From positions 1 to 17,452 of the forward strand of contig JBCCHT010000081.1 of NCBI GenBank assembly GCA_039028615.1: DNA of 17,452 nt. Reading direction: 5' to 3'. How positions within the stretch are numbered: position 1 is the first letter of the stretch; each line of letters opens with the position of its first letter. Under the pieces are notes generated by a model. It had not been told where the DNA came from and did not search any database. It saw only the letters and a program-made list of their open reading frames with translations. Positions 1-17,452 of the stretch are shown piece after piece. The stretch is from Myxococcota bacterium (GTDB lineage: Bacteria > Myxococcota_A > Polyangia > Nannocystales > Nannocystaceae). The position numbers and the translations under genes were made by a program.

Positions 1-290
1 CGTCGACGACTACGCGCTGCGAAGCTGTCGCAAGGCCATCGACGATTTCCGCGAGCAACACGGCATCGAGGACGAGGTGATGCCCATCGACGACTACTCC
101 GTGTACTGGCGTCGAAGCAAATGAGACGAAGGCCCGAACCGCCTCGATGCGGTCCGGGCCTTCGTCTCATTTGCTTCGACGCCAGTACACGGAGTAGTCG
201 TCGATGGGCATCACCTCGTCCTCGATGCCGTGTTGCTCGCGGAAATCGTCGATGGCCTTGCGACAGCTTCGCAGCGCGTAGTCGTCGACG
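1..290. repeat. Long perfect inverted repeat (arms 1-136 and 155-290) centred on a terminator-like hairpin; the left arm is a mirror copy of the 3' end of the O-methyltransferase gene
   Basis: Base i pairs with base 291-i from 1 to 136. The + strand 2..124 translates VDDYALRSCRKAIDDFREQHGIEDEVMPIDDYSVYWRRSK*, identical to the C-terminus of the ORF at 167..937(-). Confidence 0.95.
125..166 (-). terminator. GC-rich hairpin directly after the O-methyltransferase stop codon
   Basis: Minus strand reads TGA-gacgaaggcccggaccgc-atcgag-gcggttcgggccttcgtc, a stem with one G.U pair. Confidence 0.6.
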
Positions 291-937
291 ATCACAAAGC
301 CCCCGACCGAGAGCTTCGGGTAGAGGTTGGACAGCGAGTCGATGGTGGACTCGTACAGGTCACCATCGAGACGGAGGACCGCGAGGCGCTCGACCGGCGC
401 ATTGGGCAGACTGTCACAGAAGAAGCCCTTGATGAACTGAACCTGGTCATCGAGCAGATCGTAGCGGCGGAAGTGCTCCTTGACCTGATCGACGGACACC
501 GCCAGCACCTTGTTGGCGCGATGCAGGCCCAGCCGGACGTCGAGCGGGTGGGCATCGTCGTCGACGGTCGGAATCCCCTCGAAGGAGTCCGCGACCCACA
601 CGCGTCGATCGGTGATGCCATGAGCGGCCAAGACGGCTCGCATCAGGATGCAGACACCACCTCGCCAGACTCCGGTCTCGATGAGATCGCCGGGGATGTT
701 GTCCTCGATGACCTTCTCTACACACTCGTGCACGTTGTTGAGGCGGGCCAGGCCCACCATCGTGTGGGCAACACTCGGCCAGTCGAGACCGACCTTTCGT
801 TTTTCGGCGTCGTACCCCTTGGGGGCCTTGAACCAAGGAATGTCGACGTGCTCGTAGCCCAGGGGAGTGTCCTGGTAGATCACGTTGGCAAGGATCTTCT
901 TCATGAGATCCAGATACAGATGATTGGGTCGACCCAT
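167..937 (-). CDS. TylF/MycF/NovP-family (macrocin-type) sugar O-methyltransferase
   Basis: Family motifs YLDLMKKIL, DWPSVAHTMVGLARL, PGDLIETGVWRGG, VWVADSFEG, LRLDGDLYEST and GGFVIVDDY; 256 aa. Confidence 0.93.
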   Translation of the reverse strand: MGRPNHLYLDLMKKILANVIYQDTPLGYEHVDIPWFKAPKGYDAEKRKVGLDWPSVAHTMVGLARLNNVHECVEKVIEDNIPGDLIETGVWRGGVCILMRAVLAAHGITDRRVWVADSFEGIPTVDDDAHPLDVRLGLHRANKVLAVSVDQVKEHFRRYDLLDDQVQFIKGFFCDSLPNAPVERLAVLRLDGDLYESTIDSLSNLYPKLSVGGFVIVDDYALRSCRKAIDDFREQHGIEDEVMPIDDYSVYWRRSK

Positions 938-943
938 TCGCCC

Positions 944-986
944 AACCTAGCCGCTTGTGTCGACCGGAAATGCTCACAGTGGTGCA
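944..986 (-). promoter_or_regulatory. Palindromic box (971-986) plus -10-like TAGGTT (949-944); probable leaderless promoter of the O-methyltransferase
   Basis: Minus strand: TGCACC-ACTG-TGAGCA, 21 nt, TAGGTT, 6 nt, ATG at 937. Confidence 0.6.
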
Positions 987-1021
987 CCTTCGGTGAACGT
1001 CCGAAGTCCGGCGCGGGGGCT

Positions 1022-1037
1022 CGCTCACTTGTGAGCA
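1022..1037 (+). promoter_or_regulatory. Palindromic box upstream of 2,3-dehydratase 1
   Basis: CGCTCA-CTTG-TGAGCA, followed 22 nt later by TACGGA (1060-1065). Confidence 0.65.
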
Positions 1038-1075
1038 GTCCGATCGCGGCGGGAAGGTTTACGGATTAAGGGCCG

Positions 1076-2533
1076 ATGACTCTCCCGATCCCGGTTGCCT
1101 CCGAAGCGGACGTCCTCGCTCGACTCGCCCACTCGTCCCAGAGTCCGCAGAGCCCGGTCTGGCCGCTCAGCCGCTTCTTCTCCTGGCTGGTGGAACGCGC
1201 GGCCGCACGAGCGTTCACCGTCGAGCAGATGCCGCTGGCGAAGATGGACCAGTGGTCGACCGATTCCGAGACCGGCAACATCGGCCATCGCTCTGGGCGT
1301 TTCTTCACCATCGAGGGGCTGAAGGTCGAGTCGGACCTTCCGTGGGTGACCAACTGGGTTCAGCCCATCATCGTGCAGCCCGAAGTCGGTGTCCTCGGGA
1401 TACTGATCAAGGAGATCGGCGGCGTCCTGCACTGCCTGATGCACGCCAAGATGGAGCCCGGCAACGTCAACGTCGTGCAGCTGTCACCCACCGTACAGGC
1501 GACGCGCAGCAACTATATGGGTGTGCACGCGGGCGCGGCGGTGCCCTACCTCGACTACTTCCGCCCCAACGGCCGCAGCCGGGTCATCGTGGATGTGCTC
1601 CAGCCCGAGCAGGGCTCGTGGTTCTACCAGAAGAAGAACCGCAACATCGTGGTCGAGACCGATGACGACGTGGAGGTCGGCGAGGACTTCTGCTGGCTGA
1701 CGCTCGGCCAGCTCACCCAGCTTCTGCACTGGGACGACATCGTCAACATGGACACGCGCACCGTGCTGTCGTGCATCCCCTCGGCCGAGGACGTCGACGC
1801 GCGCGGCGAGTCCACGCTACGGGGAGAACCTCGCTCGTTCTCCGAGGAGATCCGCCACTCCTTCGCCGCCCTGCAACGCGGCCACCATACTCTGCGTGAA
1901 GTGCTGGGCTGGCTCTCCGAACAGCGCTCCCGCCGAGTGGTCATCCAACGCCGGGTACCCCTGCGCCAGATCGACGACGGCGGGTGGCGTCGCAGCGACG
2001 AGCTCATCGCGCACGAATCCGGCCGCTACTTCCAGGTCGTCGGCGTAGACGTCGTAGCGGGCGGTCGCGAGGTCGGCTCTTGGCAGCAGCCCCTGCTCGC
2101 GCCGATCGAGACGGGCCTCCTCGCCCTCATCGCACGGCGCGTCGATGGTTTGCTGCACGTGCTGGTCCAGGCGCGGATCGAAGCGGGCTCACCCAACGCG
2201 GTAGAGATGGCCCCGACCGTGCACTGCCAGCCGATCAACTACCAAGACCGACCTCCCGAGGCGCGCCCTCGCTTCCTCGACGCGGTGCTCGACGCTCCGG
2301 CCGAGAGCATCCGCTACGACGTCATCCAGTCCGAAGAAGGCGGCCGCTTTTTCCACGCGCGCAACCGTTGCATGGTGGTGGAGGTCGGCGACGATTTCCC
2401 GCTCGAGGCACCCGACCACTACATGTGGGCAACGCTGGGTCAGCTCAGCGCCTTGCTCAGCCACGGCAGCTACATGAACGTGGAGCTCCGCACCCTGGTG
2501 GCCTGTGCCAAGGCCCTGGGCCAACGCAGTTGA
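1076..2533 (+). CDS. NDP-4-keto-6-deoxyhexose 2,3-dehydratase (EvaA/TylX3/EryBVI family), copy 1
   Basis: HRSGRFFTIEG, QPIIVQPEVGVLG, AKMEPGN, QLSPTVQATRSNY, EQGSWFYQKKNRN, SEEGGRFFHARNR and NVELRTL; two-repeat architecture; 485 aa. Confidence 0.95.
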   Translation: MTLPIPVASEADVLARLAHSSQSPQSPVWPLSRFFSWLVERAAARAFTVEQMPLAKMDQWSTDSETGNIGHRSGRFFTIEGLKVESDLPWVTNWVQPIIVQPEVGVLGILIKEIGGVLHCLMHAKMEPGNVNVVQLSPTVQATRSNYMGVHAGAAVPYLDYFRPNGRSRVIVDVLQPEQGSWFYQKKNRNIVVETDDDVEVGEDFCWLTLGQLTQLLHWDDIVNMDTRTVLSCIPSAEDVDARGESTLRGEPRSFSEEIRHSFAALQRGHHTLREVLGWLSEQRSRRVVIQRRVPLRQIDDGGWRRSDELIAHESGRYFQVVGVDVVAGGREVGSWQQPLLAPIETGLLALIARRVDGLLHVLVQARIEAGSPNAVEMAPTVHCQPINYQDRPPEARPRFLDAVLDAPAESIRYDVIQSEEGGRFFHARNRCMVVEVGDDFPLEAPDHYMWATLGQLSALLSHGSYMNVELRTLVACAKALGQRS

Positions 2534-2552
2534 GCCGACGGCAACGTCGGCT
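2533..2552 (+). terminator. Short hairpin after the dehydratase 1 stop codon
   Basis: agccgacg-GCAA-cgtcggct: 8-bp perfect stem with a GNRA tetraloop and no U-tract. Confidence 0.45.
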
Positions 2553-2579
2553 GACACCGTGACTCGAAGCGACTAGCAT
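2551..2579 (+). promoter_or_regulatory. Sigma70-like promoter of the AlkZ-like gene (leaderless)
   Basis: CTGACA (2551-2556), 17 nt, TAGCAT (2574-2579), 7 nt, ATG at 2587; no Shine-Dalgarno sequence. Confidence 0.6.
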
Positions 2580-2586
2580 CCCCGGC

Positions 2587-3726
2587 ATGAAGGTCTCCGA
2601 ACGAGCCCTCAACCGCGCCCTCCTTGCTCGCCAGGGACTGAGCACGCCCCTGACGCAGCCGGTCGCCGAGGTCGTGACCGCCATCGGCGCGATGCAGGCC
2701 CAGCAGTGGAGCACGATCCCCATCGCGCTGTGGTCTCGCATGAAGAGCTTCGACGCCGCCGACCTTCATGCGGCTTTGGACGCGGGTGATCTCGTCGTCG
2801 GCACTTCGATCCGCCGCACCGTACACCTCGTCAGCGCCCCCGAGCACCCAGCCTACGCCACCGTGGCCGATGCCATGGGCGCCAACGAGTGGCAGCGCGG
2901 CAAGACGGCCCCCTCGAAAAGAGCCGCGCAGCTCCGCAAGAAGCTCCGCACCCATCTCGCCAAGACCAAGACCGCCGCCCAGCTCGTAGACTTCATCGAA
3001 GCCTGGGTGGACGCGAACCCGGGGGTCATCGCGGAGGACGAGCTGACCGAGCAACGAAAGTACAAGTGGCGCCCCTTGTATACGTGGAGTGCCTTGCTTC
3101 GCGCTCCCGCGGACGACGTCTGGTCCGACAAGACTCCCGCGGCCTATCGCGCGGCGAAGGTCATGCCCGGAACCAAGGCCGCGCCCACCGTCGACGACGC
3201 ACTCGAGCAGGTGATCCGCGCCCACCTGCGCGCGTTCGGTCCCGCTGCCCCCGACGACGTCGCCGGCTGGATCGGCTGGAAGGTCACCCCGGTTCGCGCG
3301 GCCATGGAAGCGATGGCCGACGAGTTGGAGACCTTCTCCGACGGCACCAAGCGCACGCTCTACGACCTTGCCGATGCACCGCGACCGGGGCCCGATGCTC
3401 CCGCCCCGCCCCGTCTGCTACCCGCCTTCGACAGCACCCTGCTCGCCTACGCCAACAAACACCGTGGACGCATTCTCCCCGACGAGTACAAGAAGGCGGT
3501 GTACTCGGGCGCCAACCTGCGGGTGAAGCCCACCGTGCTCGTCGACGGGCAGGTCGCCGGGATCTGGTCGACCAAGCTGCAACGTCGCGTCTCGACGCTG
3601 ACCATCGAGGCCTTCGACCGCATCCCGGCCAAGGTCCAACGCAAGCTGGAGTCGGTAGGTGACCAGCTGCTGCGCACGCTCGAGCCCAAGTCCCGCGAGT
3701 ACGAGGTGGTGTTCGCTCAGTCTTGA
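2587..3726 (+). CDS. HTH_42 winged-helix protein, AlkZ-like DNA glycosylase (crosslink/adduct repair; candidate self-resistance)
   Basis: LNRALLARQGL start, GAMQAQ (QxQ motif), RRTVHLV, HLRAFGPA..DDVAGWIG, RLLPAFDSTLL and PTVLVDGQVAGIW; 379 aa. Confidence 0.88.
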   Translation: MKVSERALNRALLARQGLSTPLTQPVAEVVTAIGAMQAQQWSTIPIALWSRMKSFDAADLHAALDAGDLVVGTSIRRTVHLVSAPEHPAYATVADAMGANEWQRGKTAPSKRAAQLRKKLRTHLAKTKTAAQLVDFIEAWVDANPGVIAEDELTEQRKYKWRPLYTWSALLRAPADDVWSDKTPAAYRAAKVMPGTKAAPTVDDALEQVIRAHLRAFGPAAPDDVAGWIGWKVTPVRAAMEAMADELETFSDGTKRTLYDLADAPRPGPDAPAPPRLLPAFDSTLLAYANKHRGRILPDEYKKAVYSGANLRVKPTVLVDGQVAGIWSTKLQRRVSTLTIEAFDRIPAKVQRKLESVGDQLLRTLEPKSREYEVVFAQS

Positions 3727-3757
3727 GCAGCACCCCTGCCTCGCGCCGCCCTAGGCT
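3714..3757 (+). promoter_or_regulatory. Palindromic box (3714-3729) plus -10-like TAGGCT (3752-3757) for the glycosyltransferase
   Basis: CGCTCA-GTCT-TGAGCA, 22 nt, TAGGCT. The box overlaps the stop codon of the AlkZ-like gene. Confidence 0.65.
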
Positions 3758-3793
3758 ACTGCCGCTGGCCGAGCCGTACGGCCAGATCGGCCG

Positions 3794-4987
3794 ATGCGAG
3801 CGCTATTTACCTCGATCCCCACCAGTGGCCACGTTCACCCCCTGCTCCCGCTCGCCGATGCGCTGCGCGAAGCGGGGCACGAGGTCGCCTTTGCGTGCGC
3901 GCCTTCGCTGCGCCCTTCGGTTGCGGCCTACGGGTTCGAGAGCTTCGGCGTGAGCCTCAACCGCGACGGTGATGGCAACGCGGAGTTCGATGCGCTCAAG
4001 AAGAAGGCACGCGCCCTCAAACCCGGGTTCGAGCTCGACAAGCTCGGCATCGCGGATGTGATCTACGGGGTCCGAACGCGGCAGATGCTCCCCGGGCTGC
4101 TCGAGGTCGGCAAGTCCTTCGCTCCCGATCTATTCGTCCACGAGTGCTTCGAGGCCGGGGCTGCGATCGTCGGCGACCGCCTCGGCATTCCCCACGTCAG
4201 CGTGGACATCATGCCGCTGTTCGATCGACAGCCCATGCAGTCGGCAATCGACGCCGAGCTGGCGCGCGCGCGCGCGATGGTCGACTTGCCCCCCGATCCC
4301 GAGATGCTCACCCGGGGTCTGGTGCTGAGCTTCGTCCCCCCGGGACTCCTCGATCCCGAGCTCCCTCGCCCCGAGCACCTCGAGCTGCTGCGACCGACGT
4401 TCTTCGATCGGTCGGGCGACGAAGGGCTGCCCGCGTGGTTCGAAAACCGCCCGGACCGTCCGCTCGTGTACGTCACCGTGGGCACCGTGGCCAACCGCTG
4501 GCGCTCCGATGCGGGGTCCTTGATGCAGACCATCATCGACGGCCTCCGCGACGAGCCGATCGAAGTCGTCGCCACCATCGGCCGTGAGGGCAACCCGGAG
4601 GACCTCGGTCCGCAGCCCGACAACGTCCACATCGAGCGCTATATCCCGCAGTCGCTCCTGCTGCCGCACTGTGACGTCTGTGTCAGCCACGCGGGCTTCA
4701 GCACGCTCTTGAGCTCGATCGACAACGGGATCCCTCAGCTGCTCGTGCCGCAGCTCGTCGACGATCCATTCAATGCCGCGCGGTGCCAGGCGGTGGGCAT
4801 CGGACTGAACGAAGATCCGAGCACGCTCACCTCCGATCGCGTGCGCACGGCGGCGCGTCGCCTCCTCGACGAGCCGAGCTTCCGCCGCGAGGCCCAGGCC
4901 ATGCAAACGCAGATGCACGAGCTGCCGGGGCTCGATCACGCCGTGCGGCGCCTCGAGTCACTCGCGGCGACCGGCTCCCTCGGGTGA
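3794..4987 (+). CDS. GT1 (GT-B fold) natural-product glycosyltransferase, EryCIII/MGT-like
   Basis: MRALFTSIPTSGHVHPLLPLADALREAGHEVAFA, RPLVYVTVGT, NVHIERYIPQSLLLPHCD, HAGFST and GIPQLLVPQLVDDPFNA; 397 aa. Confidence 0.93.
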   Translation: MRALFTSIPTSGHVHPLLPLADALREAGHEVAFACAPSLRPSVAAYGFESFGVSLNRDGDGNAEFDALKKKARALKPGFELDKLGIADVIYGVRTRQMLPGLLEVGKSFAPDLFVHECFEAGAAIVGDRLGIPHVSVDIMPLFDRQPMQSAIDAELARARAMVDLPPDPEMLTRGLVLSFVPPGLLDPELPRPEHLELLRPTFFDRSGDEGLPAWFENRPDRPLVYVTVGTVANRWRSDAGSLMQTIIDGLRDEPIEVVATIGREGNPEDLGPQPDNVHIERYIPQSLLLPHCDVCVSHAGFSTLLSSIDNGIPQLLVPQLVDDPFNAARCQAVGIGLNEDPSTLTSDRVRTAARRLLDEPSFRREAQAMQTQMHELPGLDHAVRRLESLAATGSLG

Positions 4988-5001
4988 CTCCAGGCCGAGT
5001 G

Positions 5002-5045
5002 CGCTCACTAGTGGGCAGTGGCGGACCCCCGCGGTGGTGTGTGGT
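5002..5045 (+). promoter_or_regulatory. Palindromic box (5002-5017) plus weak -10 TGTGGT (5040-5045)
   Basis: CGCTCA-CTAG-TGGGCA, 22 nt, TGTGGT, 6 nt, ATG at 5052. Confidence 0.55.
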
Positions 5046-5051
5046 CGACCC

Positions 5052-5939
5052 ATGGCCACTCCTGCTTCCCACGACGAGCTCGGCCCGGCGCTTCGCCCCG
5101 CGTCGGCTCAGCTGTCGAACCCCGACGCATCGATCCTTCACTCCGCCAACTGCGGCCTCATCGTCCACCGGGTAGGGCGCATCTGTGAGGCGTTCCGCGG
5201 CGAGGCCCGAGACTTCGCCCGTACCTTGCAAGGGCACGTCAACGACGCCCTCGGGTCGACCGCCACCACCCTGCTCTACGACGAGCTGCTCGGCGACGAG
5301 CATCGATTCCACTGGTTCGTGCACCTGCGCAAGCCCAACGACTATGTGCACTTCATCCACATGTCCGACGACGACGAGGACGTGCGCGAGCTCGTGGAGT
5401 CCGACCGGCTCGAGCACAAGGGCGGCGGGAACTGGGATCGCATGTTCGAGGAAGGCAGCTTCCGAGAGACGATCATGGTCCCTCAGCACGGCCTGGTCCC
5501 CGCCCAGGTCGACTCGGAGGAGCTGTTCGTACCGGCGGGGCGCCACCAGACGACCCAGACCGACGACCAGCTCGTCCACAGCGCGAACGCAGCCATCGTC
5601 GTGCGGCGAACGGCTCGGGTCCGCTTTCGTTTTCGCGAGCAAGGCCGTCGCCTCGGTCATCGCTGGGCGGAGGGACTCAACCGCGCCCATGCCGGAGATC
5701 TGACCGCCCTGCTCTACGAAGAGACCTGGGGTCGACAAGACCGTCTCCACTGGCTGATCCATTTGCGCTCCTTCGAATGCCTCGAGCGCCTCGTGCGTCA
5801 CCCCGGGCCCAGCCTCGCCGATGCCCCCGAGGGCAATGAGCGAAGCGACGAACGGTGGAGCCACATGTTCGTGGACGGCAGCTTCTCCGACACGATCTTG
5901 GTGCCTCACTTCGAGGGACGCGGCCTCCATTGGCCGTAG
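5052..5939 (+). CDS. Unknown-function two-repeat protein (DUF6039-like), paralog A
   Basis: Two repeats of HSAN..IV.R...F...R.......LLY.E..G...R.HW..HLR...W..MF..GSF..TI.VP.H; clearly homologous to the next ORF. ATG 5052 is preferred over GTG 5034. The DUF6039 name is from recall and unverified. Confidence 0.75.
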   Translation: MATPASHDELGPALRPASAQLSNPDASILHSANCGLIVHRVGRICEAFRGEARDFARTLQGHVNDALGSTATTLLYDELLGDEHRFHWFVHLRKPNDYVHFIHMSDDDEDVRELVESDRLEHKGGGNWDRMFEEGSFRETIMVPQHGLVPAQVDSEELFVPAGRHQTTQTDDQLVHSANAAIVVRRTARVRFRFREQGRRLGHRWAEGLNRAHAGDLTALLYEETWGRQDRLHWLIHLRSFECLERLVRHPGPSLADAPEGNERSDERWSHMFVDGSFSDTILVPHFEGRGLHWP

Positions 5940-5945
5940 GCTCAG

Positions 5946-5961
5946 GTCTCAATACTGAGCG
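5946..5961 (+). promoter_or_regulatory. Degenerate palindromic box upstream of paralog B
   Basis: GTCTCA-ATAC-TGAGCG, 21 nt, TAAGTC (5983-5988), 8 nt, ATG at 5997. Confidence 0.5.
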
Positions 5962-5996
5962 GTCGTTTCCGGGGCTCGCTGATAAGTCCGTGTTCC

Positions 5997-6935
5997 ATGA
6001 GCGAAGCCTCGACCGACAACGTCATCAGCGAAACGCCCACCGCGGAGCAGCAGACCGAAGTCGCCCCGTCGGACCTGCTGAACTCCGCGAACTGCGGGGT
6101 CATCGTCGAGCGTGTGGCCGACATCAAGAGTGAGATGCGTTCCGAGGGCCGGACCTTCGCCCGCAACTTGGCCACGTACATCAACGAGACGCAAAAGGGC
6201 ATCGCCAGCGTGTTCGTGTACGAGGAGACCTTCGGCAAGAAAGACCGCATCCACTGGATGATTCACATGCGCTCGCTGCGAGACTACGAGCGCATGCTGA
6301 CCATGGGTACGCACGACGAGAAGTACCGCAACATCTTCACGCAGCAGGTCATCCCCGAGCACAAGGGCGGTGGCACCTGGGACCGGATCTTCATCGACGG
6401 CAGCATGCGAGAGTCGGTCATCATGCCGCAGTTTTGGGGCATGTACGGCACCGCCGCCACGCTTCGCGATGGTCGCCCTTCGATGTTCGAGGAGGGCCTC
6501 GAGACCGTGCTACCCGCGGCTCACCATCAGTGTGACCTGCCCCAGGAGAAGATCCTCCACTCGGGGAACTGCGGCGCGATCATTCACCGCAGCGCCCAGC
6601 TGGCCTACGAGTTCCGCTCCGAGGGCCGCCAGTTCGCTCGCGAGGCTCTCGATGCGATCAACGAGAAGGGCGGCGAGGTCACCGGCTTCCTCTACGAGGA
6701 AGCGTTCGGCGAGGCCGACCGCATCCACTGGTTGCTCCACATGAAGAGCGTGTCGTCCTACTACTGGCTGATCCGCATGCACGCGATGGAAGAGAAGGTT
6801 CGCGACATCTTCTTCCGCGACCGCATCCCGGCCGAGCGCGGCGGCGGCAACTGGTCGCGAATGTTCGTGCCGGGGAGCATGGTCGACGTCTGCCTCACGC
6901 CCCAGCACTGGGGCATGTACGCCACCAAGAAGTAA
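5997..6935 (+). CDS. Unknown-function two-repeat protein (DUF6039-like), paralog B
   Basis: Paired repeat motifs LNSANCG/LHSGNCG, RSEGRTFAR/RSEGRQFAR, YEETFGKKDRIHW/YEEAFGEADRIHW, GGGTWDRIF/GGGNWSRMF and PQFWGMY/PQHWGMY; 312 aa. Confidence 0.8.
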   Translation: MSEASTDNVISETPTAEQQTEVAPSDLLNSANCGVIVERVADIKSEMRSEGRTFARNLATYINETQKGIASVFVYEETFGKKDRIHWMIHMRSLRDYERMLTMGTHDEKYRNIFTQQVIPEHKGGGTWDRIFIDGSMRESVIMPQFWGMYGTAATLRDGRPSMFEEGLETVLPAAHHQCDLPQEKILHSGNCGAIIHRSAQLAYEFRSEGRQFAREALDAINEKGGEVTGFLYEEAFGEADRIHWLLHMKSVSSYYWLIRMHAMEEKVRDIFFRDRIPAERGGGNWSRMFVPGSMVDVCLTPQHWGMYATKK

Positions 6936-6958
6936 CCCCTCACGACGGACGGCCTCCC

Positions 6959-8176
6959 ATGACCAACGCTGCCCCTGCATCCGACGGCGCTCCGCTGCCG
7001 TTTCCCTTTCCCATCGTCTCGAGCCTCGATCCATCGCCCGAGTACGCTCGGCTGCGCGCCGAGCAGCCCGTCGTTCGCGTTCGCCTCCCGAGTGGAGACC
7101 TCGCGTGGCTGGTGACTCGGCACGAGGACGTGCGCTTCGTCTTCGGCGACCCGCGCTTCAGCCGGGCTGCCGCCTGTGCTCCCGATGCGCCCCGCCTCAT
7201 GCCGGGCGTGGAGGCGGACCCCGAGTCCATCGTCAGTAAGGACGCCCCCGCCCACACCCGCCTGCGTCGCCTCGTTGCGCCCGCGTTCGTGCCCCGACGG
7301 ATGGAGGCCTACCGCGACATGATCACCAACACGGTCGATCGCCTGCTCGATGGCATGGAGGCGGCGGGGCCTCCGGCCGACATCGTCGCGCACCTGAGCA
7401 GCACGCTGCCGATGATCACCATCTGCGAGCTGCTCGGAGTCTCCGAAGAAGACCACGATCGCTTCCGCGAGTGGGCGACGACCATGTTCGGCACCACCAA
7501 AGAAGCGATGAAGAAGGGCATCGCCGCCCGCAAGTCGCTGCTGTCCTACCTGCAGACTCTCATCGAGCACAAGCGCAAGGAACGGGGCGACGACCTGCTC
7601 AGCGTGCTCATCGCGTACCAGGAAGAGGGCGACCGACTGAGCGGCAAGGAGCTGCTCTCGTTCGCGGGTGGCCTCATCGTCGCCGGCTACGAGACCACGT
7701 CCAACCGCATCGCCAACGCGGTGCTCATGCTCCTGCGCCACCCCGGGCAGCTCGCCCTGCTCCGAGACGGAGACGAGCACGTCGAGTCCGCGGTGGAAGA
7801 GCTGCTGCGCTTCATCCCGGGCGGCGCCGCGGGAGGCCTGATGCGAGTCGCCCTCGAGGACGTCGAGATCCGCGGGGTGACCGTGCACGAGGGCGACGGC
7901 ATCATCGCGGTCACCAACTCGGCCAACCGAGACGATGCCGTGTTCCCCGATCCAGACCGCTTCGACATCACGCGCAAGCCGGGCCCCCACAAGACCTTCG
8001 GGCACGGCATCCACTACTGCGTCGGAGCCCAGCTCGCCCGCATCGAGCTGCAGCAATCCCTCGGCCAGCTCGCTCGTCGCTTCCCAAACCTCAGCCTGGC
8101 CGTTCCCGAGCAAGAGCTGAAGTGGCGGAAGAACGTGGTGATTCACAGCCTCGAGTCGCTCCCCGTGAAGTGGTGA
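6959..8176 (+). CDS. Cytochrome P450 (CYP105/107-like)
   Basis: AWLVTRHEDVR, HTRLRRLV, I-helix AGYETT, ExxR (EELLR) and heme motif FGHGIHYCVGAQLAR; 405 aa. Confidence 0.97.
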   Translation: MTNAAPASDGAPLPFPFPIVSSLDPSPEYARLRAEQPVVRVRLPSGDLAWLVTRHEDVRFVFGDPRFSRAAACAPDAPRLMPGVEADPESIVSKDAPAHTRLRRLVAPAFVPRRMEAYRDMITNTVDRLLDGMEAAGPPADIVAHLSSTLPMITICELLGVSEEDHDRFREWATTMFGTTKEAMKKGIAARKSLLSYLQTLIEHKRKERGDDLLSVLIAYQEEGDRLSGKELLSFAGGLIVAGYETTSNRIANAVLMLLRHPGQLALLRDGDEHVESAVEELLRFIPGGAAGGLMRVALEDVEIRGVTVHEGDGIIAVTNSANRDDAVFPDPDRFDITRKPGPHKTFGHGIHYCVGAQLARIELQQSLGQLARRFPNLSLAVPEQELKWRKNVVIHSLESLPVKW

Positions 8177-8207
8177 GCCCGGTCGGCATCGCCGACCACC
8201 GAACCAC

Positions 8208-8245
8208 GAAAAAGCGACCGTCTCCATCGAGACGGTCGCTTTTTC
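8208..8245. terminator. Bidirectional intrinsic terminator between the convergent P450 and C-methyltransferase genes
   Basis: gaaaaagcgaccgtctc-catc-gagacggtcgctttttc: 17-bp perfect inverted repeat with A5/T5 tracts. Confidence 0.85.
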
Positions 8246-8263
8246 CGTTGCCAGGGTTGCCAG

Positions 8264-8306
8264 CGACGATGAGGGCCCGAGGGAGCTCCCCCGGGCCTTC
8301 GTCGTC
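8264..8306. terminator. Second hairpin directly after the C-methyltransferase stop codon
   Basis: gacgatgagggcccgaggg-agct-cccccgggccttcgtcgtc; shares the GACGAAGGCCCG arm with the hairpin at 125-166. Confidence 0.5.
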
Positions 8307-9540
8307 AGGCGCTTCGACGCGTTCGATGCATGACCAGCTCGGGGAGCGGGACGACGTGGCCCTTGGCGATCTTGCTCCGCTCGATGATGGCCTCCGAGAA
8401 GTTCCAGGACAGGATGAACACGACGTCGTTCGCATCGAGCTCGTCCATGCCCACCACCTTCAGGTCCACCCCCGGGATGTACATGCCTTGCTTGCCCTCG
8501 GTCTCGTCGATGACGTGATCCAAGAAGCTGCTGTCCAGGCCGCAGTAGTTGAGCGCGATGCAGCCCTTCGCACCTGCTCCGAAGCCGACGAGTCGTTCAC
8601 CGTCGGCCTTGAGCTGAGTGAGGAAGCGGCGCACGTTGGCCCGAAAATTCGCGGCCTGGGTGCCGAAGCCTTGGTAGCGCTCGAAGCTATAGAAGCCGCC
8701 CTCCTCCTCCGAGGCGATCATCTTCGCCACCGAGGGCTTGATCTCGTGCTTGCCCTCATGGCCGACGAACATCCGCAGGGAGCCGCCGTAGACCGACGTC
8801 TTCTCGACGTCGTAGACCATCATGCCGTGCTTGCGGAACAGCGTGTCGGCCGAGTGCAGCAGCCAGTACGAGGGATGCTCGTGGTGCACCGTGTCGAAGA
8901 GGGTGCCGTTGATGAGGTCGACGTGGTGGGGCGCCTCGACGATGCAGGTGCCGTCCTCGGCGAGCACCACCTTCAGCCCGGCCACGAATTCGCGGATGTT
9001 CGCGACATGCCCGAACACCTGGGTCGCGGTGACGATCTTGGCCTTGCCGAAGCTGCTCACGATGCCGTCGGCGATGGCCGGGGTCCAGTACTCGTTGATC
9101 GTCGAGATCCCCTTGGTCTTGGCCAGCTCGATCAAGTTGGTGGCCGGATCGACGCCGACCTTGACGACCTCGTAGGGAGAGAACTGATCGAGCGGGCCCC
9201 CATCGTTGCATGCGATGTCGACCACGACATCCCCTCGTTTCATCCCCAGTCGCTCCGACGCGATCGATGCGAGTTCCTGGAAGTGCTCGAGGTTCGGCTT
9301 CGACACCGACGACTCCCAGGGAAAGTCCCGGAACATCAGGTCCGGGTTCACATCGACCGTCAGCTGCGACAGGTGACACCCCTTGCAATACGCGAGCTCC
9401 AACTTGAAGCGCCGAACATCGTTGCCGGGAGCAGACTGAAAATCGTCCGGCAGGGGCATATCCCCGAGATCGAAGTACGGCACGATTTCGCTACCGCAAA
9501 CCTTGCAAGACGTTCGCGTGACACAGTCTGGTTTCTTCAT
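8305..9540 (-). CDS. SAM-dependent NDP-hexose C-methyltransferase (TylC3/EryBIII/NovU family)
   Basis: Zn motif CKVC...CKGC, DLGDMPL, DIACNDG, GVDPA, HHEHPSY, GGSLRMF, FGAGAKG and ILSWNF. Start placed at ATG 9540 (MKKPDC); 411 aa. Confidence 0.92.
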   Translation of the reverse strand: MKKPDCVTRTSCKVCGSEIVPYFDLGDMPLPDDFQSAPGNDVRRFKLELAYCKGCHLSQLTVDVNPDLMFRDFPWESSVSKPNLEHFQELASIASERLGMKRGDVVVDIACNDGGPLDQFSPYEVVKVGVDPATNLIELAKTKGISTINEYWTPAIADGIVSSFGKAKIVTATQVFGHVANIREFVAGLKVVLAEDGTCIVEAPHHVDLINGTLFDTVHHEHPSYWLLHSADTLFRKHGMMVYDVEKTSVYGGSLRMFVGHEGKHEIKPSVAKMIASEEEGGFYSFERYQGFGTQAANFRANVRRFLTQLKADGERLVGFGAGAKGCIALNYCGLDSSFLDHVIDETEGKQGMYIPGVDLKVVGMDELDANDVVFILSWNFSEAIIERSKIAKGHVVPLPELVMHRTRRSA

Positions 9541-9556
9541 GGTCTTCTCGGCCTCA

Positions 9557-9600
9557 AACCTAGCCAGGGTCTCGCCGTGACTACTGCTCACGAGTGAGCA
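9557..9600 (-). promoter_or_regulatory. Palindromic box (9585-9600) plus -10-like TAGGTT (9562-9557) for the C-methyltransferase
   Basis: TGCTCAC-GA-GTGAGCA perfect palindrome, 22 nt from TAGGTT on the minus strand. Confidence 0.7.
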
Positions 9601-9638
9601 CCACTTCTGCGGGACGGCGAAACCGGACTGCACTCTCC

Positions 9639-9681
9639 TGCTCATCATTGAGCAGCTCCCATGACCATGGCTGACTACCGT
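9639..9681 (+). promoter_or_regulatory. Palindromic box (9639-9654) plus -10-like TACCGT (9676-9681) for the dehydratase 2 operon
   Basis: TGCTCA-TCAT-TGAGCA, 21 nt, TACCGT, 6 nt, in-frame GTG at 9688. Confidence 0.7.
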
Positions 9682-11073
9682 GCCGCGGTGGAGTCGAGGG
9701 ACCGCAGCTCTTCCGCGCCTGCCTCGCGACCGCGACCGGATCGCGCGATCATCTCTTGGCTGATCGAGCGCTCCGCCAGCCAGAACCATCGCGTCGAGCG
9801 AGTGCCACTATCCGCTCTCCAGGGATGGTCGACCAAGCCCGGCGACGGAGACCTCGTGCACCAGTCCGGTCGCTTCTTTGCGATCCGGGGGGTGAGGGTC
9901 GACGCCGGCCCGCAGCAGTGGACCCAGCCGATCATCGTGCAGCCGGAGGTCGGCCTGTCGGGCATGGTCGTGCGGCGCTTCGATAGCGTGATGCACTGCC
10001 TGGTTCGCGCCAAGATGGAGCCCGGCAACATCAACTACGTACAGCTGTCGCCCACGGTCCAGGCGACCCGGAGCAACTACACCCGCGCCCACCGGGGCTC
10101 GGCCGTTCCCTACCTCGAGTACTTCCAGGACACCGATCCTCGGCACGTGCTCGTCGATGCCCTGCACACGGAGCAAGGCTCGTGGTTTCTGGCCAAGAAC
10201 AACCGGAACATGGTCGTCGAAGTCGACCGCGACATCCCGGTCGAAGAGGATCACGCGTGGCTCTCCGTCTCGAGCCTACAGTCCCTGCTGCGCTCGGACG
10301 ACATCCTCAACATGAGCACGCGAACGCTGCTGGCGTGCATGGGCGCAGCTGGCTTCGTGGAGCGCATGCCCCGTGGTCCACAGACCTCGCTGTCTCGCCC
10401 GGTTCATGACTCCTTCCTCGCTCAGAGCGGCCACCACTCTCTCGACCGAGTGCGGGCGTGGCTGGACCAGCGACGAAAGGAACGCGCGGCGACCAGCGAG
10501 GTCGTGCCCCTGCGGCAGATCACGAACGAAGGCTGGAACCTCGGCGCCGAGTCGATTCGTCACGAACGAGGGCGCTACTTCCAAGTGGTGGGCATCGATG
10601 TCTCGGCCACCGGGCGCGAGGTCCGGTCGTGGCAGCAGCCGATCATCGCCCCCACCGACACGGGCCTCGTCGCCTTCGTCGCTCGGCGCATCGATGGCTT
10701 GTTGCACGTGCTGGTCCAGGCTCGGGTCGAGGCCGGTGCCGCCGCGGGAGCCCACATCGCTCCGACCGTGCAGTGCGTGCCCGGCAACTACGAGCATCTC
10801 CCCGCCGATCAGCGCCCGCGCTATCTCGATGTCGTGCGAGAGGCTCCCGCGAGCCGACGCCACTACGATGCCATGCAGTCGGAGGAAGGCGGCCGGCTGT
10901 TCCATGCTCGCAACCGCTACCGGGTGGTCGAGGTCGACGACGGCTTCTCGCTCGACACCCCACCCGACTACCAGTGGGTCACCCTCGGGCAGCTCGATGC
11001 CCTGCTCGTGCCCGGTGGAAATCTCGACATCGAACTGAGGAGCTTGATGGCATGCACTCGAACTCTCGCGTAG
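9661..11073 (+). CDS. NDP-hexose 2,3-dehydratase, copy 2 (true start may be GTG 9688)
   Basis: HQSGRFFAIRG, QPIIVQPEVG, AKMEPGN, QLSPTVQATRSNY, EQGSWFLAKNNRN, SEEGGRLFHARNR and DIELRSL. Confidence 0.94.
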   Translation: MTMADYRAAVESRDRSSSAPASRPRPDRAIISWLIERSASQNHRVERVPLSALQGWSTKPGDGDLVHQSGRFFAIRGVRVDAGPQQWTQPIIVQPEVGLSGMVVRRFDSVMHCLVRAKMEPGNINYVQLSPTVQATRSNYTRAHRGSAVPYLEYFQDTDPRHVLVDALHTEQGSWFLAKNNRNMVVEVDRDIPVEEDHAWLSVSSLQSLLRSDDILNMSTRTLLACMGAAGFVERMPRGPQTSLSRPVHDSFLAQSGHHSLDRVRAWLDQRRKERAATSEVVPLRQITNEGWNLGAESIRHERGRYFQVVGIDVSATGREVRSWQQPIIAPTDTGLVAFVARRIDGLLHVLVQARVEAGAAAGAHIAPTVQCVPGNYEHLPADQRPRYLDVVREAPASRRHYDAMQSEEGGRLFHARNRYRVVEVDDGFSLDTPPDYQWVTLGQLDALLVPGGNLDIELRSLMACTRTLA

Positions 11074-12044
11074 GCGCCTCCCTCCGGTTCGGCATCCTGG
11101 GCTGCGCCGACATTGCGTGGCGGCGCATGCTTCCCGCCCTCGCGGCCCATCCCTCCACCACCGTCACCGCGCACGCATCACGGTCGACCGACAAAGCACG
11201 GAAGTTCGCCGAGCGCTTCGGCGGCACCCCATGCACGGGCTACCAGGCCCTGCTCGAGCGCTCCGATGTGGACGCGGTGTACATCCCGCTCCCCAACTCA
11301 CACCACTACGAGTGGGCCGCTCGAGCGCTACGGGCGAGCAAGCACGTACTGTGTGAAAAGCCGCTCACCACCGACGCCCGCCAGACCGAGGAGCTGCTCG
11401 AGCTGTCCGAGCGCCACGGCGTCTCGCTGATGGAAAACTACGCGTTCGAGTTCCACTCGATGCACGCCCGCGCCCGAGAACTCGTCGACCAAGGAGCCGT
11501 GGGCGAGCTCCGGCACTTCTCGAGTGCGTTCACCGTCCCGCGTCGCCCCGAGGGCGACATCCGCCTCCGTCACGATCTCGGGGGAGGGGCCATGCTCGAC
11601 GCCGCGGGTTACCCCCTGCGGGCCGCCCTTCACCTGCTGGGACCCATCGAGATTCTCGACGTCGTCCCGCAGCAAAGCGGCGAGATCGACGTCGCGGGCA
11701 CCGTATTGGCGAGGACACCTTCGAATGTCTCGGTCACCCTGACCTACGGCCTCGACCACTTCTATCGGGCCGACTACGTGTTCCACGGCAGCACCGGTCG
11801 GCTCTCGCTGGACCGAGTGTTCACCGCGCCCGCCGACTTCGAGCCGACGCTGCGGCTGAGCACCCGCAACGGGCATCAGGAGCTGACCCTCGCGGCCGAC
11901 GACCAAGTTCGACACATGCTGACCGCATTCGTGGCGTCGGCCAGCGCAGCCCGTGACGCCCAGCGCCGGGCCACGACATCCCTGCACGCCCGCCTACTCG
12001 ACGACATCCGAGCCCAACGAGCCCTCCGGGAGATTGAGCAATGA
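11052..12044 (+). CDS. Gfo/Idh/MocA-family oxidoreductase, probable NDP-hexose 3-ketoreductase (KijD10/SpnN/OleW type)
   Basis: LRFGILGCADIAWRRMLPAL, DAVYIPLPNSHH, KHVLCEKPL and GGGAMLDAAGYP. GAGGAG Shine-Dalgarno at 11037-11042 precedes ATG 11052; 330 aa. Confidence 0.92.
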   Translation: MHSNSRVGASLRFGILGCADIAWRRMLPALAAHPSTTVTAHASRSTDKARKFAERFGGTPCTGYQALLERSDVDAVYIPLPNSHHYEWAARALRASKHVLCEKPLTTDARQTEELLELSERHGVSLMENYAFEFHSMHARARELVDQGAVGELRHFSSAFTVPRRPEGDIRLRHDLGGGAMLDAAGYPLRAALHLLGPIEILDVVPQQSGEIDVAGTVLARTPSNVSVTLTYGLDHFYRADYVFHGSTGRLSLDRVFTAPADFEPTLRLSTRNGHQELTLAADDQVRHMLTAFVASASAARDAQRRATTSLHARLLDDIRAQRALREIEQ

Positions 12045-12646
12045 ACTTCAAACCGATGACGCTGGCCGGGGGTTATCTCATCGACCCCAAGATCTTCCAC
12101 GACGACCGCGGGGAATTCTACGAGGTGCTGCGACCCGCACGCCTCGAAGAGGCCACCGGGTATCGCTTCACCGCGCAGCAGTTCAGCTTCTCTCGGTCGC
12201 ACCGCAACATTCTCCGCGGCATCCATACGACTCGGGTTCCGCCTGGCCAGGCCAAGGTCGTTTCTTGTGCCCACGGCTCCATCTTGACCGCCACCGTCGA
12301 TCTGCGGGTGGGCTCGCCCACCTTCGGCCAATTCGAGCTCACCCCTCAGGATGCCGAGTCCGGCGTCTCCGTGGTCCTCACCGATGGCCTCGGGCACGCG
12401 TTCCTGGTGCTCTCGGACACCGCCGTCGTCTCCTATCTCGCGTCCAAGGAGTACCAGCCCGGCACCATGATCGAGATCGACGCCCTCGATCCCGCGCTCG
12501 GCATCGAGTGGCCGCTCCAGGGCGAACCGATCCGCTCGCCCAAGGATGCCGCCGCGCCCACTGCCGACGAAGCCGCTGCATCCGGCATTCTGCCGACCTA
12601 CGAGCAGTGCCTCCGCTCCGCCGTCATCCCGGAGAAGTCGTCATGA
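12041..12646 (+). CDS. dTDP-4-keto-6-deoxyhexose (3,)5-epimerase, RmlC/EvaD family
   Basis: FHDDRGEFYE, SHRNILRGIH, GQAKVVSC, VDLRVGSPTFG, GLGHAF, DPALGIEWP and SPKD; ATGA overlap with the upstream gene. Confidence 0.95.
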   Translation: MNFKPMTLAGGYLIDPKIFHDDRGEFYEVLRPARLEEATGYRFTAQQFSFSRSHRNILRGIHTTRVPPGQAKVVSCAHGSILTATVDLRVGSPTFGQFELTPQDAESGVSVVLTDGLGHAFLVLSDTAVVSYLASKEYQPGTMIEIDALDPALGIEWPLQGEPIRSPKDAAAPTADEAAASGILPTYEQCLRSAVIPEKSS

Positions 12647-13767
12647 TCCCGTTGTTCAAGGTCTCCACGTCTCCCCGCGCCGCCGACCTCGTCGCCGAAG
12701 TCCTGGAGAGCGGATACTTGGGGGAAGGCCCCAAGGTCGAAGCGTTCGAAGCCGAGCTGGCCAAGCACTTCGGCACCCCCCGCGTCGCCACCGTCAACAG
12801 TGCGACCTCGGGCATCCACCTCGTGTTGCACATGCTGCGCGAGGAGGCACGAGGCCCCGGCGACCGCAACGAGGTGCTCTCGACGCCGCTGACCTTCCCC
12901 TCGTCCAACTGGCCCGTGCTCCTCAACGGGTTTCGTCTGAAATGGGTCGACGTCGACCCGGCGACCCTCAATGTCGATCTCGACGACGTCGCTCGCAAGA
13001 TCACCGAACGCACCCGGGCCATCGTCGTCGTCCACTGGGGCGGCTATCCCATCGACATGGCCCGCCTCGACGCCATACTCGACGAAGCCGAGGCGCTTCA
13101 CGGACACCGCCCCGTCGTCCTCGAGGACTGCGCCCACGCGATGGGTTCCACCTACCACGGCGAGATCGTCGGGACGCACGGCAACCCCTCCGTCTTCAGC
13201 TTCCAGGCGGTCAAGCACCTCAACACCGCCGATGGCGGCATGCTCATCCTCCCCGACGACGAGATGTGGCGTCGCGCTCGACGGCTTCGCTGGCTCGGCT
13301 TCGACCGCGATGGCACCGAGCGTTTCCGTAGCGAGCTGAACATCGAAGAATACGGCTTCAAGTTCCACATGAACGACGTCGCCGCCGCGATGGGCCTGGC
13401 CAACCTCGACATCGTCGACGGCAACATCCGCCGACACAAACACAATGCCGCCCGCTACGACCAAGCCCTCGGCGACGTGGCGGGTCTACAGCTCACCGAG
13501 CGACGCGAAGGCTTCGAGTCTTCGTTCTGGCTCTACTCCATCCTCGTCGACGATCGGCCTGGCTTCATGCGGCGTATGAACGAGGCGGGCATCCACGTCA
13601 GCCAGGTCCAGCGTCGCAACGATCTGCATACTTGTGTCACTGACGTTCGTTCGCAGCTCCCCGGCCTCGACAGCGTCGCCGACCGCATGGTCGCGATCCC
13701 CGTCGGATGGTGGCTGAAAGACGAAGACGTCGACTACGTCGTGGAGACGATACGCGGCGGCTGGTAG
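12643..13767 (+). CDS. DegT/DnrJ/EryC1/StrS PLP-dependent sugar aminotransferase, likely C4-type (AtmS13-like)
   Basis: MIPLFKV start, GPKVEAFE, NSATSG, VHWGGYP, EDCAHA, SFQAVKHL (PLP Lys) and IPVGWWL; ATGA overlap; 374 aa. Confidence 0.94.
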   Translation: MIPLFKVSTSPRAADLVAEVLESGYLGEGPKVEAFEAELAKHFGTPRVATVNSATSGIHLVLHMLREEARGPGDRNEVLSTPLTFPSSNWPVLLNGFRLKWVDVDPATLNVDLDDVARKITERTRAIVVVHWGGYPIDMARLDAILDEAEALHGHRPVVLEDCAHAMGSTYHGEIVGTHGNPSVFSFQAVKHLNTADGGMLILPDDEMWRRARRLRWLGFDRDGTERFRSELNIEEYGFKFHMNDVAAAMGLANLDIVDGNIRRHKHNAARYDQALGDVAGLQLTERREGFESSFWLYSILVDDRPGFMRRMNEAGIHVSQVQRRNDLHTCVTDVRSQLPGLDSVADRMVAIPVGWWLKDEDVDYVVETIRGGW

Positions 13768-15537: not shown

Positions 15538-15685
15538 GAGGCGCCACGAGTCTACCGTGGGCGCGGGCGAGGCGCTCCTCGGAGCCGCGGAAAATCGACC
15601 GCGCGCGCAATCCATTCGAGGTGCGCCCGGACTTCTCGGTCACCGCTGGCCGGCCCATGTCGCGGCCACGCTCGAGGACGAACCG

Positions 15686-17094: not shown

Positions 17095-17205
17095 GGGTGG
17101 TTAGTACCAAATGCTGCGGCGAGCCGACGTCTCGCGGCCACACGCCGTTTCACCGGGCCTCTGCGGGGGTTCACGTCGGCGAGTCTGCTGTACGATGGCT
17201 CGGCA

Positions 17206-17452
17206 GTGGCACGAGTGAAGAAAACGACCACCAAGAAGACGGCTGCCAAGAAGAAGACCGCCGCCAAGAAGAAGACCGCCGCCAAGAAGAAGACCGCCGC
17301 CAAGAAGAAGACCACCGCCAAGAAGAAGACCGCCGCCAAGAAGAAGACCGCCGCCAAGAAGAAGACCGCCGCCAAGAAGAAGACCGCCGCCAAGAAGAAG
17401 ACCGCCGCCAAGAAGAAGACCGCCGCCAAGAAGAAGACCGCCGCCAAGAAGA
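17206..17452 (+). CDS. 5' part of a Lys/Ala-rich histone H1-like repeat protein (truncated by the window end)
   Basis: GTG 17206 opens MARVKKTTTKKTAA(KKKTAA)n with no stop codon; TACGAT -10-like hexamer at 17191-17196. Confidence 0.75.
   Translation, partial: MARVKKTTTKKTAAKKKTAAKKKTAAKKKTAAKKKTTAKKKTAAKKKTAAKKKTAAKKKTAAKKKTAAKKKTAAKKKTAAKK
17248..17452 (+). repeat. 18-bp tandem repeat AAGAAGAAGACCGCCGCC, 11 full units plus a partial unit
   Basis: Units start every 18 nt from 17248. One variant unit (acc acc gcc) is at 17302, and a degenerate unit precedes the array at 17230. Confidence 0.97.

Follow-up and report, generated by a model that had tools for sequence, protein, structure and literature searches.

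Which protein reads a palindrome that recurs ahead of gene after gene on one contig, and which pathway does it serve? The contig in question, JBCCHT010000081.1 of assembly GCA_039028615.1 (C81; 17,452 nucleotides, nt), is taken here whole and called the window. In it an earlier note, made from the letters alone, had marked seven copies of YGCTCA-N4-TGAGCR and ascribed them to one dimeric, pathway-specific activator encoded elsewhere. The genome was recovered from a marine metagenome run and comprises 12.27 Mb in 94 contigs (96.7% complete); its 65 MYXO-CTERM matches, together with 0 WhiB matches, point to a myxobacterium rather than an actinobacterium as the likely host. Our answer is that the seven boxes, and six more on a second contig, C26, are very probably the sites of a Crp/Fnr protein encoded on C26, a putative class II activator that would act on both contigs.

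Dyads and hexamers in the window

All seven boxes agree with the note in sequence and coordinates. Scored against the consensus, four match exactly (1022, 3714, 9585 and 9639), the box at 5002 has one mismatch, and those at 971 and 5946 have two each; one box stands at each of seven predicted biosynthetic promoters, which upholds the suggestion of one per transcription unit. Box 1 (971..986, minus strand, TGCACC-ACTG-TGAGCA) faces a TylF-like O-methyltransferase gene through the -10-like hexamer TAGGTT (944..949, minus), with ATG 937, a predicted leaderless start, 6 nt behind, and box 2 (1022..1037, plus, CGCTCA-CTTG-TGAGCA) faces the genes for 2,3-dehydratase 1 and an AlkZ-like protein through TACGGA (1060..1065, plus; ATG 1076, 10 nt behind). 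Box 3 (3714..3729, plus, CGCTCA-GTCT-TGAGCA) overlaps with the AlkZ-like gene at its stop codon and faces a glycosyltransferase gene (TAGGCT, 3752..3757, plus; ATG 3794, 36 nt behind); box 4 (5002..5017, plus, CGCTCA-CTAG-TGGGCA) faces DUF6039 gene a (weak TGTGGT, 5040..5045, plus; ATG 5052, 6 nt behind); and box 5 (5946..5961, plus, GTCTCA-ATAC-TGAGCG) faces DUF6039 gene b and a cytochrome P450 gene (TAAGTC, 5983..5988, plus; ATG 5997, 8 nt behind). Box 6 (9585..9600, minus, TGCTCA-CTCG-TGAGCA as read on that strand) faces a sugar C-methyltransferase gene (TAGGTT, 9557..9562, minus; ATG 9540, 16 nt behind), and box 7 (9639..9654, plus, TGCTCA-TCAT-TGAGCA) faces the genes for dehydratase 2, a ketoreductase, an epimerase and an aminotransferase (TACCGT, 9676..9681, plus; GTG 9688, 6 nt behind).

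From box 1 to box 7 the distance to the hexamer is 21, 22, 22, 22, 21, 22 and 21 nt, within the range given before, and four of the seven hexamers have the form TAnnnT, the other three being imperfect, again as the note had counted. The hexamer of box 7 sits within the longest reading frame of its gene (from ATG 9661), so that this promoter can work only with a start at GTG 9688. The start codon follows the hexamer at exactly 6 nt in three of the seven cases (937, 5052 and 9688), a position that fits leaderless transcripts and supports the -10 assignments.

Class II promoters of CRP carry their site centred near -41.5. In the window, arithmetic from an assumed transcription start 7 nt behind the hexamer places the dyad centre at -41.5/-42.5, and a simple scan for consensus sigma-70 promoters found none at the seven box sites and two elsewhere. 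The class II geometry that had been proposed is thus consistent with what is present: a dyad at fixed distance, a computed centre near -41.5 and no consensus -35. As to frequency, matches with at most one mismatch number five, where shuffling gave a mean of 0.41 (none of 200 shuffles reached five), and the four exact matches compare with 0.006 expected from the off-cluster rate of 4 in 12.2 Mb. Six further strings with two mismatches (1212, 1596, 4824, 5287, 5654 and 6034) all fall in coding DNA and count as background.

A second contig and its Crp/Fnr gene

The note had suggested that the motif might serve as a tag for missing core genes, and this is how C26 was reached. In the whole genome the exact motif occurs 13 times: four times in the window, five times on C26 (10.6-55.5 kb) and singly at four other places. 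Nine of the 13 therefore fall within 70 kb of 12.27 Mb, not the background frequency that the note had named as a reason to abandon the idea. A matrix built from the seven window boxes alone recovers the C26 boxes and adds C26:15469, giving six (10614, 15410, 15469, 52226, 53096 and 55463) and a cluster total of 13. All six have, at 21/22 nt toward a gene, a hexamer with two or three of the T-A-T positions, and in two cases a start codon lies 6 nt behind it. The genes faced are a P450 operon, an A-PCP operon, the first gene for an NRPS/PKS (nonribosomal peptide synthetase/polyketide synthase), the regulator, an acyl-CoA ligase gene and a SnoaL gene. Of the four off-cluster exact matches, three are within reading frames and not one has a good -10 at 21/22 nt; a global regulon was rejected on these grounds.

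C26:1-57 kb encodes a hybrid NRPS/trans-acyltransferase (trans-AT) PKS. Its last PKS stretch holds a PF09924-like region (1408-1664), PF01212 (1765-1985), which is a pyridoxal phosphate (PLP) lyase, and then a hydrolase, and it matches an actinobacterial locus with LnmK at 48% over 605 amino acids (aa). We take PF09924 to be the DUF of the DUF-SH didomain. C26 also encodes LnmK itself (PF18238, TIGR04098; E 1.8e-89 to the solved LnmK), two HMG-CoA synthases, an enoyl-CoA hydratase (ECH), a free ketosynthase, a trans-AT, a type II thioesterase, PhyH and an efflux set. Judged by these domains, with a DUF-SH didomain in the last PKS module and a beta-branching cassette of LnmK, acyl carrier protein and HMG-CoA synthase, C26:1-57 kb holds an NRPS/trans-AT PKS cluster of the leinamycin family. 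Clusters of this family are described as NRPS/trans-AT PKS systems that end in DUF, PLP lyase and hydrolase and carry LnmK; the lnm, gnm, wsm and lrg clusters share this ending and LnmK with C26, and wsm and lrg, like C26, have two HMG synthases (PMC8479088, PMC7618002, PMC9396626). The DUF-SH didomain has been called a beacon of the leinamycin family and is reported from other cluster types as well (PMC8479088, PMC8597713).

Within this cluster lies the gene of a 245-aa Crp/Fnr regulator (C26:52338-53075; PF00027 and PF13545 above cut-off), preceded by a box of its own (C26:52226) with TATCGT at 22 nt. The note had placed the activator outside the window, in the CRP/FNR or the LuxR family; the location is borne out computationally by this gene, and of the two families the evidence favours the first. 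A LuxR-type operator was rejected, with no LuxR-type gene among the scanned cluster proteins (a genome-wide LuxR search was not made), and the reading of the boxes by a sigma factor found no support. The predicted structure of the regulator (pLDDT 87) matches CRP/GlxR structures in Foldseek (E 3.5e-17 and TM 0.76 to MtbCRP). Its recognition helix is MVGTTRSRIGLFLK (TTRSRIG), and it is the only one of the genome's six full Crp-type helix-turn-helix matches to carry RSRIG.

The protein is neither CRP proper nor FNR. Its NCBIfam scores are 38.7 for CRP (cut-off 266) and 33.6 for Fnr (cut-off 228), its helix is not RExxR, it lacks the ExSR helix, and the half-site is TGCTC and not TGTGA. The box, in the form TGCTC-N6-GAGCA, spaces its half-sites as a CRP site does, with different bases at the positions that the changed helix residues would read. 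The reference motifs are RExxR for CRP and ExSR for FNR (PMC3590769) and TGTGA for the CRP half-site (PMC1635313). Compared with the class II promoters of Escherichia coli CRP, Mycobacterium tuberculosis CRP and Corynebacterium glutamicum GlxR, the fold and the 16-bp 5-N6-5 dyad are the same, whereas the half-site (TGCTC), the helix (RSRIG) and the sequence (~25% identity) are not, and those proteins run global regulons where here there is one cluster.

Some further features of the regulator may be recorded. A GKxC cysteine (C83) is kept in at least 90% of 64 sequences of the regulator family, which is without CRP-like residues in the long helix; it is conceivable that C83 would act as a thiol/persulfide sensor for a persulfide pathway. 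The lowest GC content of the cluster (61.5%, C26:52-56 kb) is at the regulator gene and its upstream DNA. The box at C26:53096 is flanked by hexamers on both sides, and the minus-strand one, TAGGTC at 21 nt, might possibly give rise to antisense RNA running into the regulator gene's 3' end and so put a brake on feedback; a similar minus-strand hexamer is found in the Micromonospora tulbaghiae locus. A box near the 3' end (at most two mismatches) accompanies 8 of 21 regulator genes, mostly serving the next gene.

The motif in other genomes

With each species represented by one genome, a profile search found 551 relatives of the regulator; our results cover the best 79 loci, which were split by the taxon named in the record into 30 actinobacterial and 49 other loci. 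The SR[IV]G helix is found in 30/30 of the former and 0/49 of the latter. Around the 30, the exact box occurs 40 times in 546 kb, in 21 loci (shuffles, 0 per Mb), whereas the 49 relatives with other helices have no exact box in 644 kb. An unbiased dyad search of the 30 loci put TGCTCA-N4-TGAGCA first (35 seen against 0.1 expected, in 18 loci). Over 150 distinct box sides, TAnnnT lies at a spacing of 21 in 32 cases, of 22 in 15, and once elsewhere in the range 10-39, and start codons around the actinobacterial boxes peak 6 and 7 nt behind TAnnnT. The actinobacterial loci carry homologues of DUF6039, HMG synthase, ECH, trans-AT, LnmK or DUF-SH, and LnmK was present in eight of nine tested genomes among them. 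From a different starting point, LnmK was found in 17 of 401 genomes sampled around a Streptomyces; the regulator is in 13 of these 17 versus one of 17 LnmK-negative genomes, and an exact box lies within 60 kb of LnmK in 8/13 genomes with the regulator and 0/4 without it (10/13 when the regulator is counted as an anchor too). This co-occurrence of helix and box across genomes is a strong association, not proof. As a side observation, sister regulators from Acidobacteriota, Binatota and others have the helix RPR[IV]S and are without the box, and a TCGACC-N4-GGTCGA dyad is enriched in 9 of the 49 non-actinobacterial loci.

A model of box plus hexamer, trained on 19 of the 30 actinobacterial loci and on no sequence from this genome, places 10 of the 13 cluster boxes within the genome's top 15, with the promoter of box 7 at the very top. 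It is against these held-out results that chance must be judged. The seven sites that the consensus describes are those from which it was derived, and four exact matches do lie off-cluster, as one might expect of fortuitous matches or a dispersed repeat; the confirmation on C26 and on the actinobacterial loci, the shuffle controls and the sharp spacing peak nevertheless refute chance, the DNA flanking the boxes is too dissimilar between them for a dispersed repeat, and we give this explanation practically no weight.

Could the same Crp/Fnr protein instead repress, or act both ways, with the -35 region blocked until an effector lifts the block? A site adjoining or over the -35 can block polymerase. 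Box 7 lies only 7 nt before ATG 9661 and box 3 is inside the end of a gene, positions that would suit a repressor, but the spacing of 21/22 nt in 47 of 48 TAnnnT cases is needed for contact with polymerase and not by a repressor, and the simple scan shows no sigma-70 promoter at the seven sites. Moreover, the Crp/Fnr regulator described for leinamycin, LnmO of Streptomyces atroolivaceus, is described as a pathway-specific positive regulator (PMC7105598, PMC6215055, PMC6001450), whose overexpression raised titre about threefold (PMC7105598). Repression is very unlikely. The C26 protein resembles LnmO in being a Crp/Fnr protein encoded inside a leinamycin-type cluster, and differs in that the host is a myxobacterium; no binding site for LnmO was found in the portions of the literature searched, which included few subscription papers.

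That some other factor reads the dyad, be it one of the host's Crp-type proteins, a protein of LuxR type or an alternative sigma factor, is highly improbable. The genome does hold five more Crp-type proteins, but these carry other helices (RESVNK, RETISL, RAEVTR, REEISR and RETVSR), the motif is not genome-wide as the regulon of a global factor would be, it tracks the RSR[IV]G regulator in other genomes, and the annotated cluster genes include no other regulator.

A twin cluster and the question of transfer

M. tulbaghiae is listed with a leinamycin-like cluster (PMC5765111), and the cluster of strain DSM 45142 shares sugar, AlkZ, DUF6039 and P450 genes with the window. Our comparison covered 30-82 and 105-145 kb of one contig, on which there are homologues of 11 of the 12 window cluster genes together with LnmK and the regulator; the same stretches hold an HMG synthase, a thioesterase and two Crp/Fnr genes, and no match in them was found for the window's C-methyltransferase or for GNAT. 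Since M. tulbaghiae holds sugar genes and core together, the sugar genes of the window belong with a leinamycin-type core. Nine of the 12 exact M. tulbaghiae boxes lie at 37-139 kb of the cluster contig, the one at 37 kb being without a hexamer and probably outside the cluster, and the junction from AlkZ to the glycosyltransferase carries a box both there and in the window. The M. tulbaghiae and S. nogalater clusters each contain a pair of regulators from this family, separated by a few kb.

Searches among relatives of the host did not find the cluster: none of 72 genomes of the family gave DUF6039, and LnmK was missing from all 400 other phylum genomes searched and from 60 relatives. This pattern suggests that the cluster was transferred from actinobacteria. 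A quick tree of 52 rows, which left out 32 of 46 rows with S/T-type helices, sets the C26 regulator apart from the host's Crp proteins on a long branch and leaves the direction of transfer unsettled. In five same-genus genomes the cluster flanks match on separate contigs, so the empty insertion site is not informative. The same absence from the searched kin, and the same long branch, might be taken to mean that the boxes are relics of an actinobacterial transfer, no longer used by their myxobacterial host. We hold this to be very unlikely, because the proteins stand at 48-71% to Micromonospora and gene order has changed, yet 13 boxes keep both sequence and spacing and the regulator keeps its frame and helix intact; their retention despite this divergence indicates that selection has kept them.

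The contig junction and the genes of the window

The window and C26 share a terminator-like hairpin (123..168 in the window, strand not assigned; common to the start of C26), likely the contig junction. C26 71-1 aligns ungapped to window 125-195 and agrees at 35 of 36 hairpin letters and at 24 of the 35 letters of the tail that follows, and the full hairpin occurs at only these two places in the genome. Positions 1-136 of the window are an inverted copy of 155-290 around the hairpin; 1-154 is a fold-back artefact that falsely duplicates the TylF gene's 3' end, and the metagenome run's own contig begins at 155. C73 begins with a similar inverted copy. The contigs of the possible source run end in the hairpin (at 155 for the window piece, at C26:50 for the other), with depths of 19 and 18. 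This is most simply explained if a single terminator, lying between the TylF gene and the efflux genes, interrupted both assemblies; C26:1-57 kb and window 125-13767 are likely one cluster of ~70 kb.

Percentages in the following are to M. tulbaghiae. The O-methyltransferase of the TylF family (167..937, minus; PF05711) stands at 71%, dehydratase 1, an NDP-hexose 2,3-dehydratase (1076..2533, plus; PF03559), at 57%, and the AlkZ-like DNA glycosylase with its QAQ motif (2587..3726, plus; PF06224; PDB 5uuj, E 2e-12) at 52%; a putative self-resistance role is likely for the latter, and AlkZ homologues have been noted in C-1027/leinamycin-like clusters (10.1101/2021.10.29.466481). There follow, on the plus strand, an EryCIII-like glycosyltransferase (3794..4987; PF06722; 57%), DUF6039 proteins a (5052..5939; PF19505; with homologues in leinamycin-type loci) and b (5997..6935; PF19505; 58%) and the cytochrome P450 (6959..8176; PF00067; 68%). 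DUF6039 is an internally duplicated protein that adjoins this regulator in most actinobacterial loci, and looks like a marker of leinamycin-type clusters; in M. tulbaghiae it comes after ECH and trans-AT and before the first NRPS/PKS, which we take to be the position of lnmH. The sugar C-methyltransferase (8305..9540, minus; PF08484 and PF08421) precedes dehydratase 2 (9661..11073 in its longest frame, with the predicted start at GTG 9688, plus; PF03559), an NDP-hexose 2,3-dehydratase at 53% to dehydratase 1. In line downstream are the genes of a GFO-type ketoreductase, a 3,5-epimerase and a DegT-type aminotransferase (11052..13767, plus; PF01408, PF00908 and PF01041; 48, 54 and 61%). No nucleotidyltransferase or 4,6-dehydratase is among the scanned cluster genes of window and C26, so the host would have to supply the sugar precursor.

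Directly after the cluster, and without a box, comes a 608-aa frame (13789-15615, minus) that matched no family of Pfam or NCBIfam; five same-genus genomes gave no long match to it either. The window ends in the start of a histone-like gene with KKKTAAKK repeats (17190-17452), cut by the contig end; similar repeats terminate several other contigs (C4, C41, C48 and C56).

Discussion

We propose that a dimer of the C26 regulator would bind each dyad at about -41.5/-42.5, where the -35 is missing, and recruit RNA polymerase with the housekeeping sigma factor. Through the box at C26:52226 it would drive its own gene, a positive feedback, while internal boxes before single genes would let one protein raise 13 promoters together; several of the transcripts may be leaderless. 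The altered helix, RSRIG in place of the RExxR of CRP, would account for the TGCTC half-site in place of TGTGA. The product of the one ~70-kb cluster would be a glycosylated, sulfur-bearing macrolactam of leinamycin type, with self-protection of the AlkZ type, and the cluster was likely acquired from actinobacteria.

Several results weigh against this proposal. In 9 of the 30 actinobacterial loci the exact box is absent, two of them lacking even a one-mismatch box, and near neither regulator nor LnmK is there an exact box in 3 of the 13 regulator-bearing genomes of the LnmK sample. Close kinship is common among the 30 loci (ten are from Streptosporangiaceae), and helix and taxon are confounded in the comparison of 30 with 49. 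The independent model leaves window boxes 5002 and 5946 and C26:15469 outside its top 40 and puts off-cluster sites at ranks 5, 8, 9, 13 and 14, and by box score alone the best site of the genome is off-cluster, at C36:48396; this site (48396-48411), in the last codons of a non-cluster gene and without a good -10, is possibly due to chance or non-activating. No contig bridging C26 and C81 was found in the genome or among the contigs of the run. Finally, the C26 regulator would be an orthologue of LnmO by cluster context only: no record named LnmO was among the matches listed in two profile searches and a cluster look-up, and the 3 of 20 LnmK loci that were compared with the solved LnmK were far from identical to it.

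A Crp/Fnr class II activator is of a known kind. What would be new is its site, the motif having no description that we could find in the literature searched (few subscription papers among it), and, from the sequences at hand, a two-contig regulon in a marine myxobacterium, with a leinamycin-type cluster that is likely glycosylated. The same searches found no myxobacterial leinamycin cluster, and the published descriptions compared, so far as accessible, hold no glycosylated member of the family. Against the known clusters this one is set apart by its marine myxobacterial host, two 2,3-dehydratases, the C-methyltransferase and an HlyD/ABC efflux set. A wider reading, which we favour with some reserve, is that TGCTC-N6-GAGCA at 21/22 nt is an undescribed code of a TTRSR[IV]G subfamily of Crp/Fnr proteins running leinamycin-family clusters, that the whole regulon moved as a portable switch from actinobacteria to a marine myxobacterium, and that this is the first glycosylated leinamycin-type pathway outside Actinomycetota.

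Clusters of the leinamycin family encode DNA-alkylating antitumour leads and are often silent; lrg is reported to be silent until lrgR2 is overexpressed (PMC9396626, PMC13200230). The locus points to a sugar-decorated compound of leinamycin type in a myxobacterium, and the pair of RSRIG and TGCTC extends the recognition code of the CRP/FNR family. A defined operator shows which genes are members of a cluster, joins its pieces across contigs, and brings the test of activation down to a single protein and a single 16-mer. If the wider reading is true, the motif would be a gene-independent tag with which to fix the borders of clusters of this family, join those that have been split and wake those that are silent.

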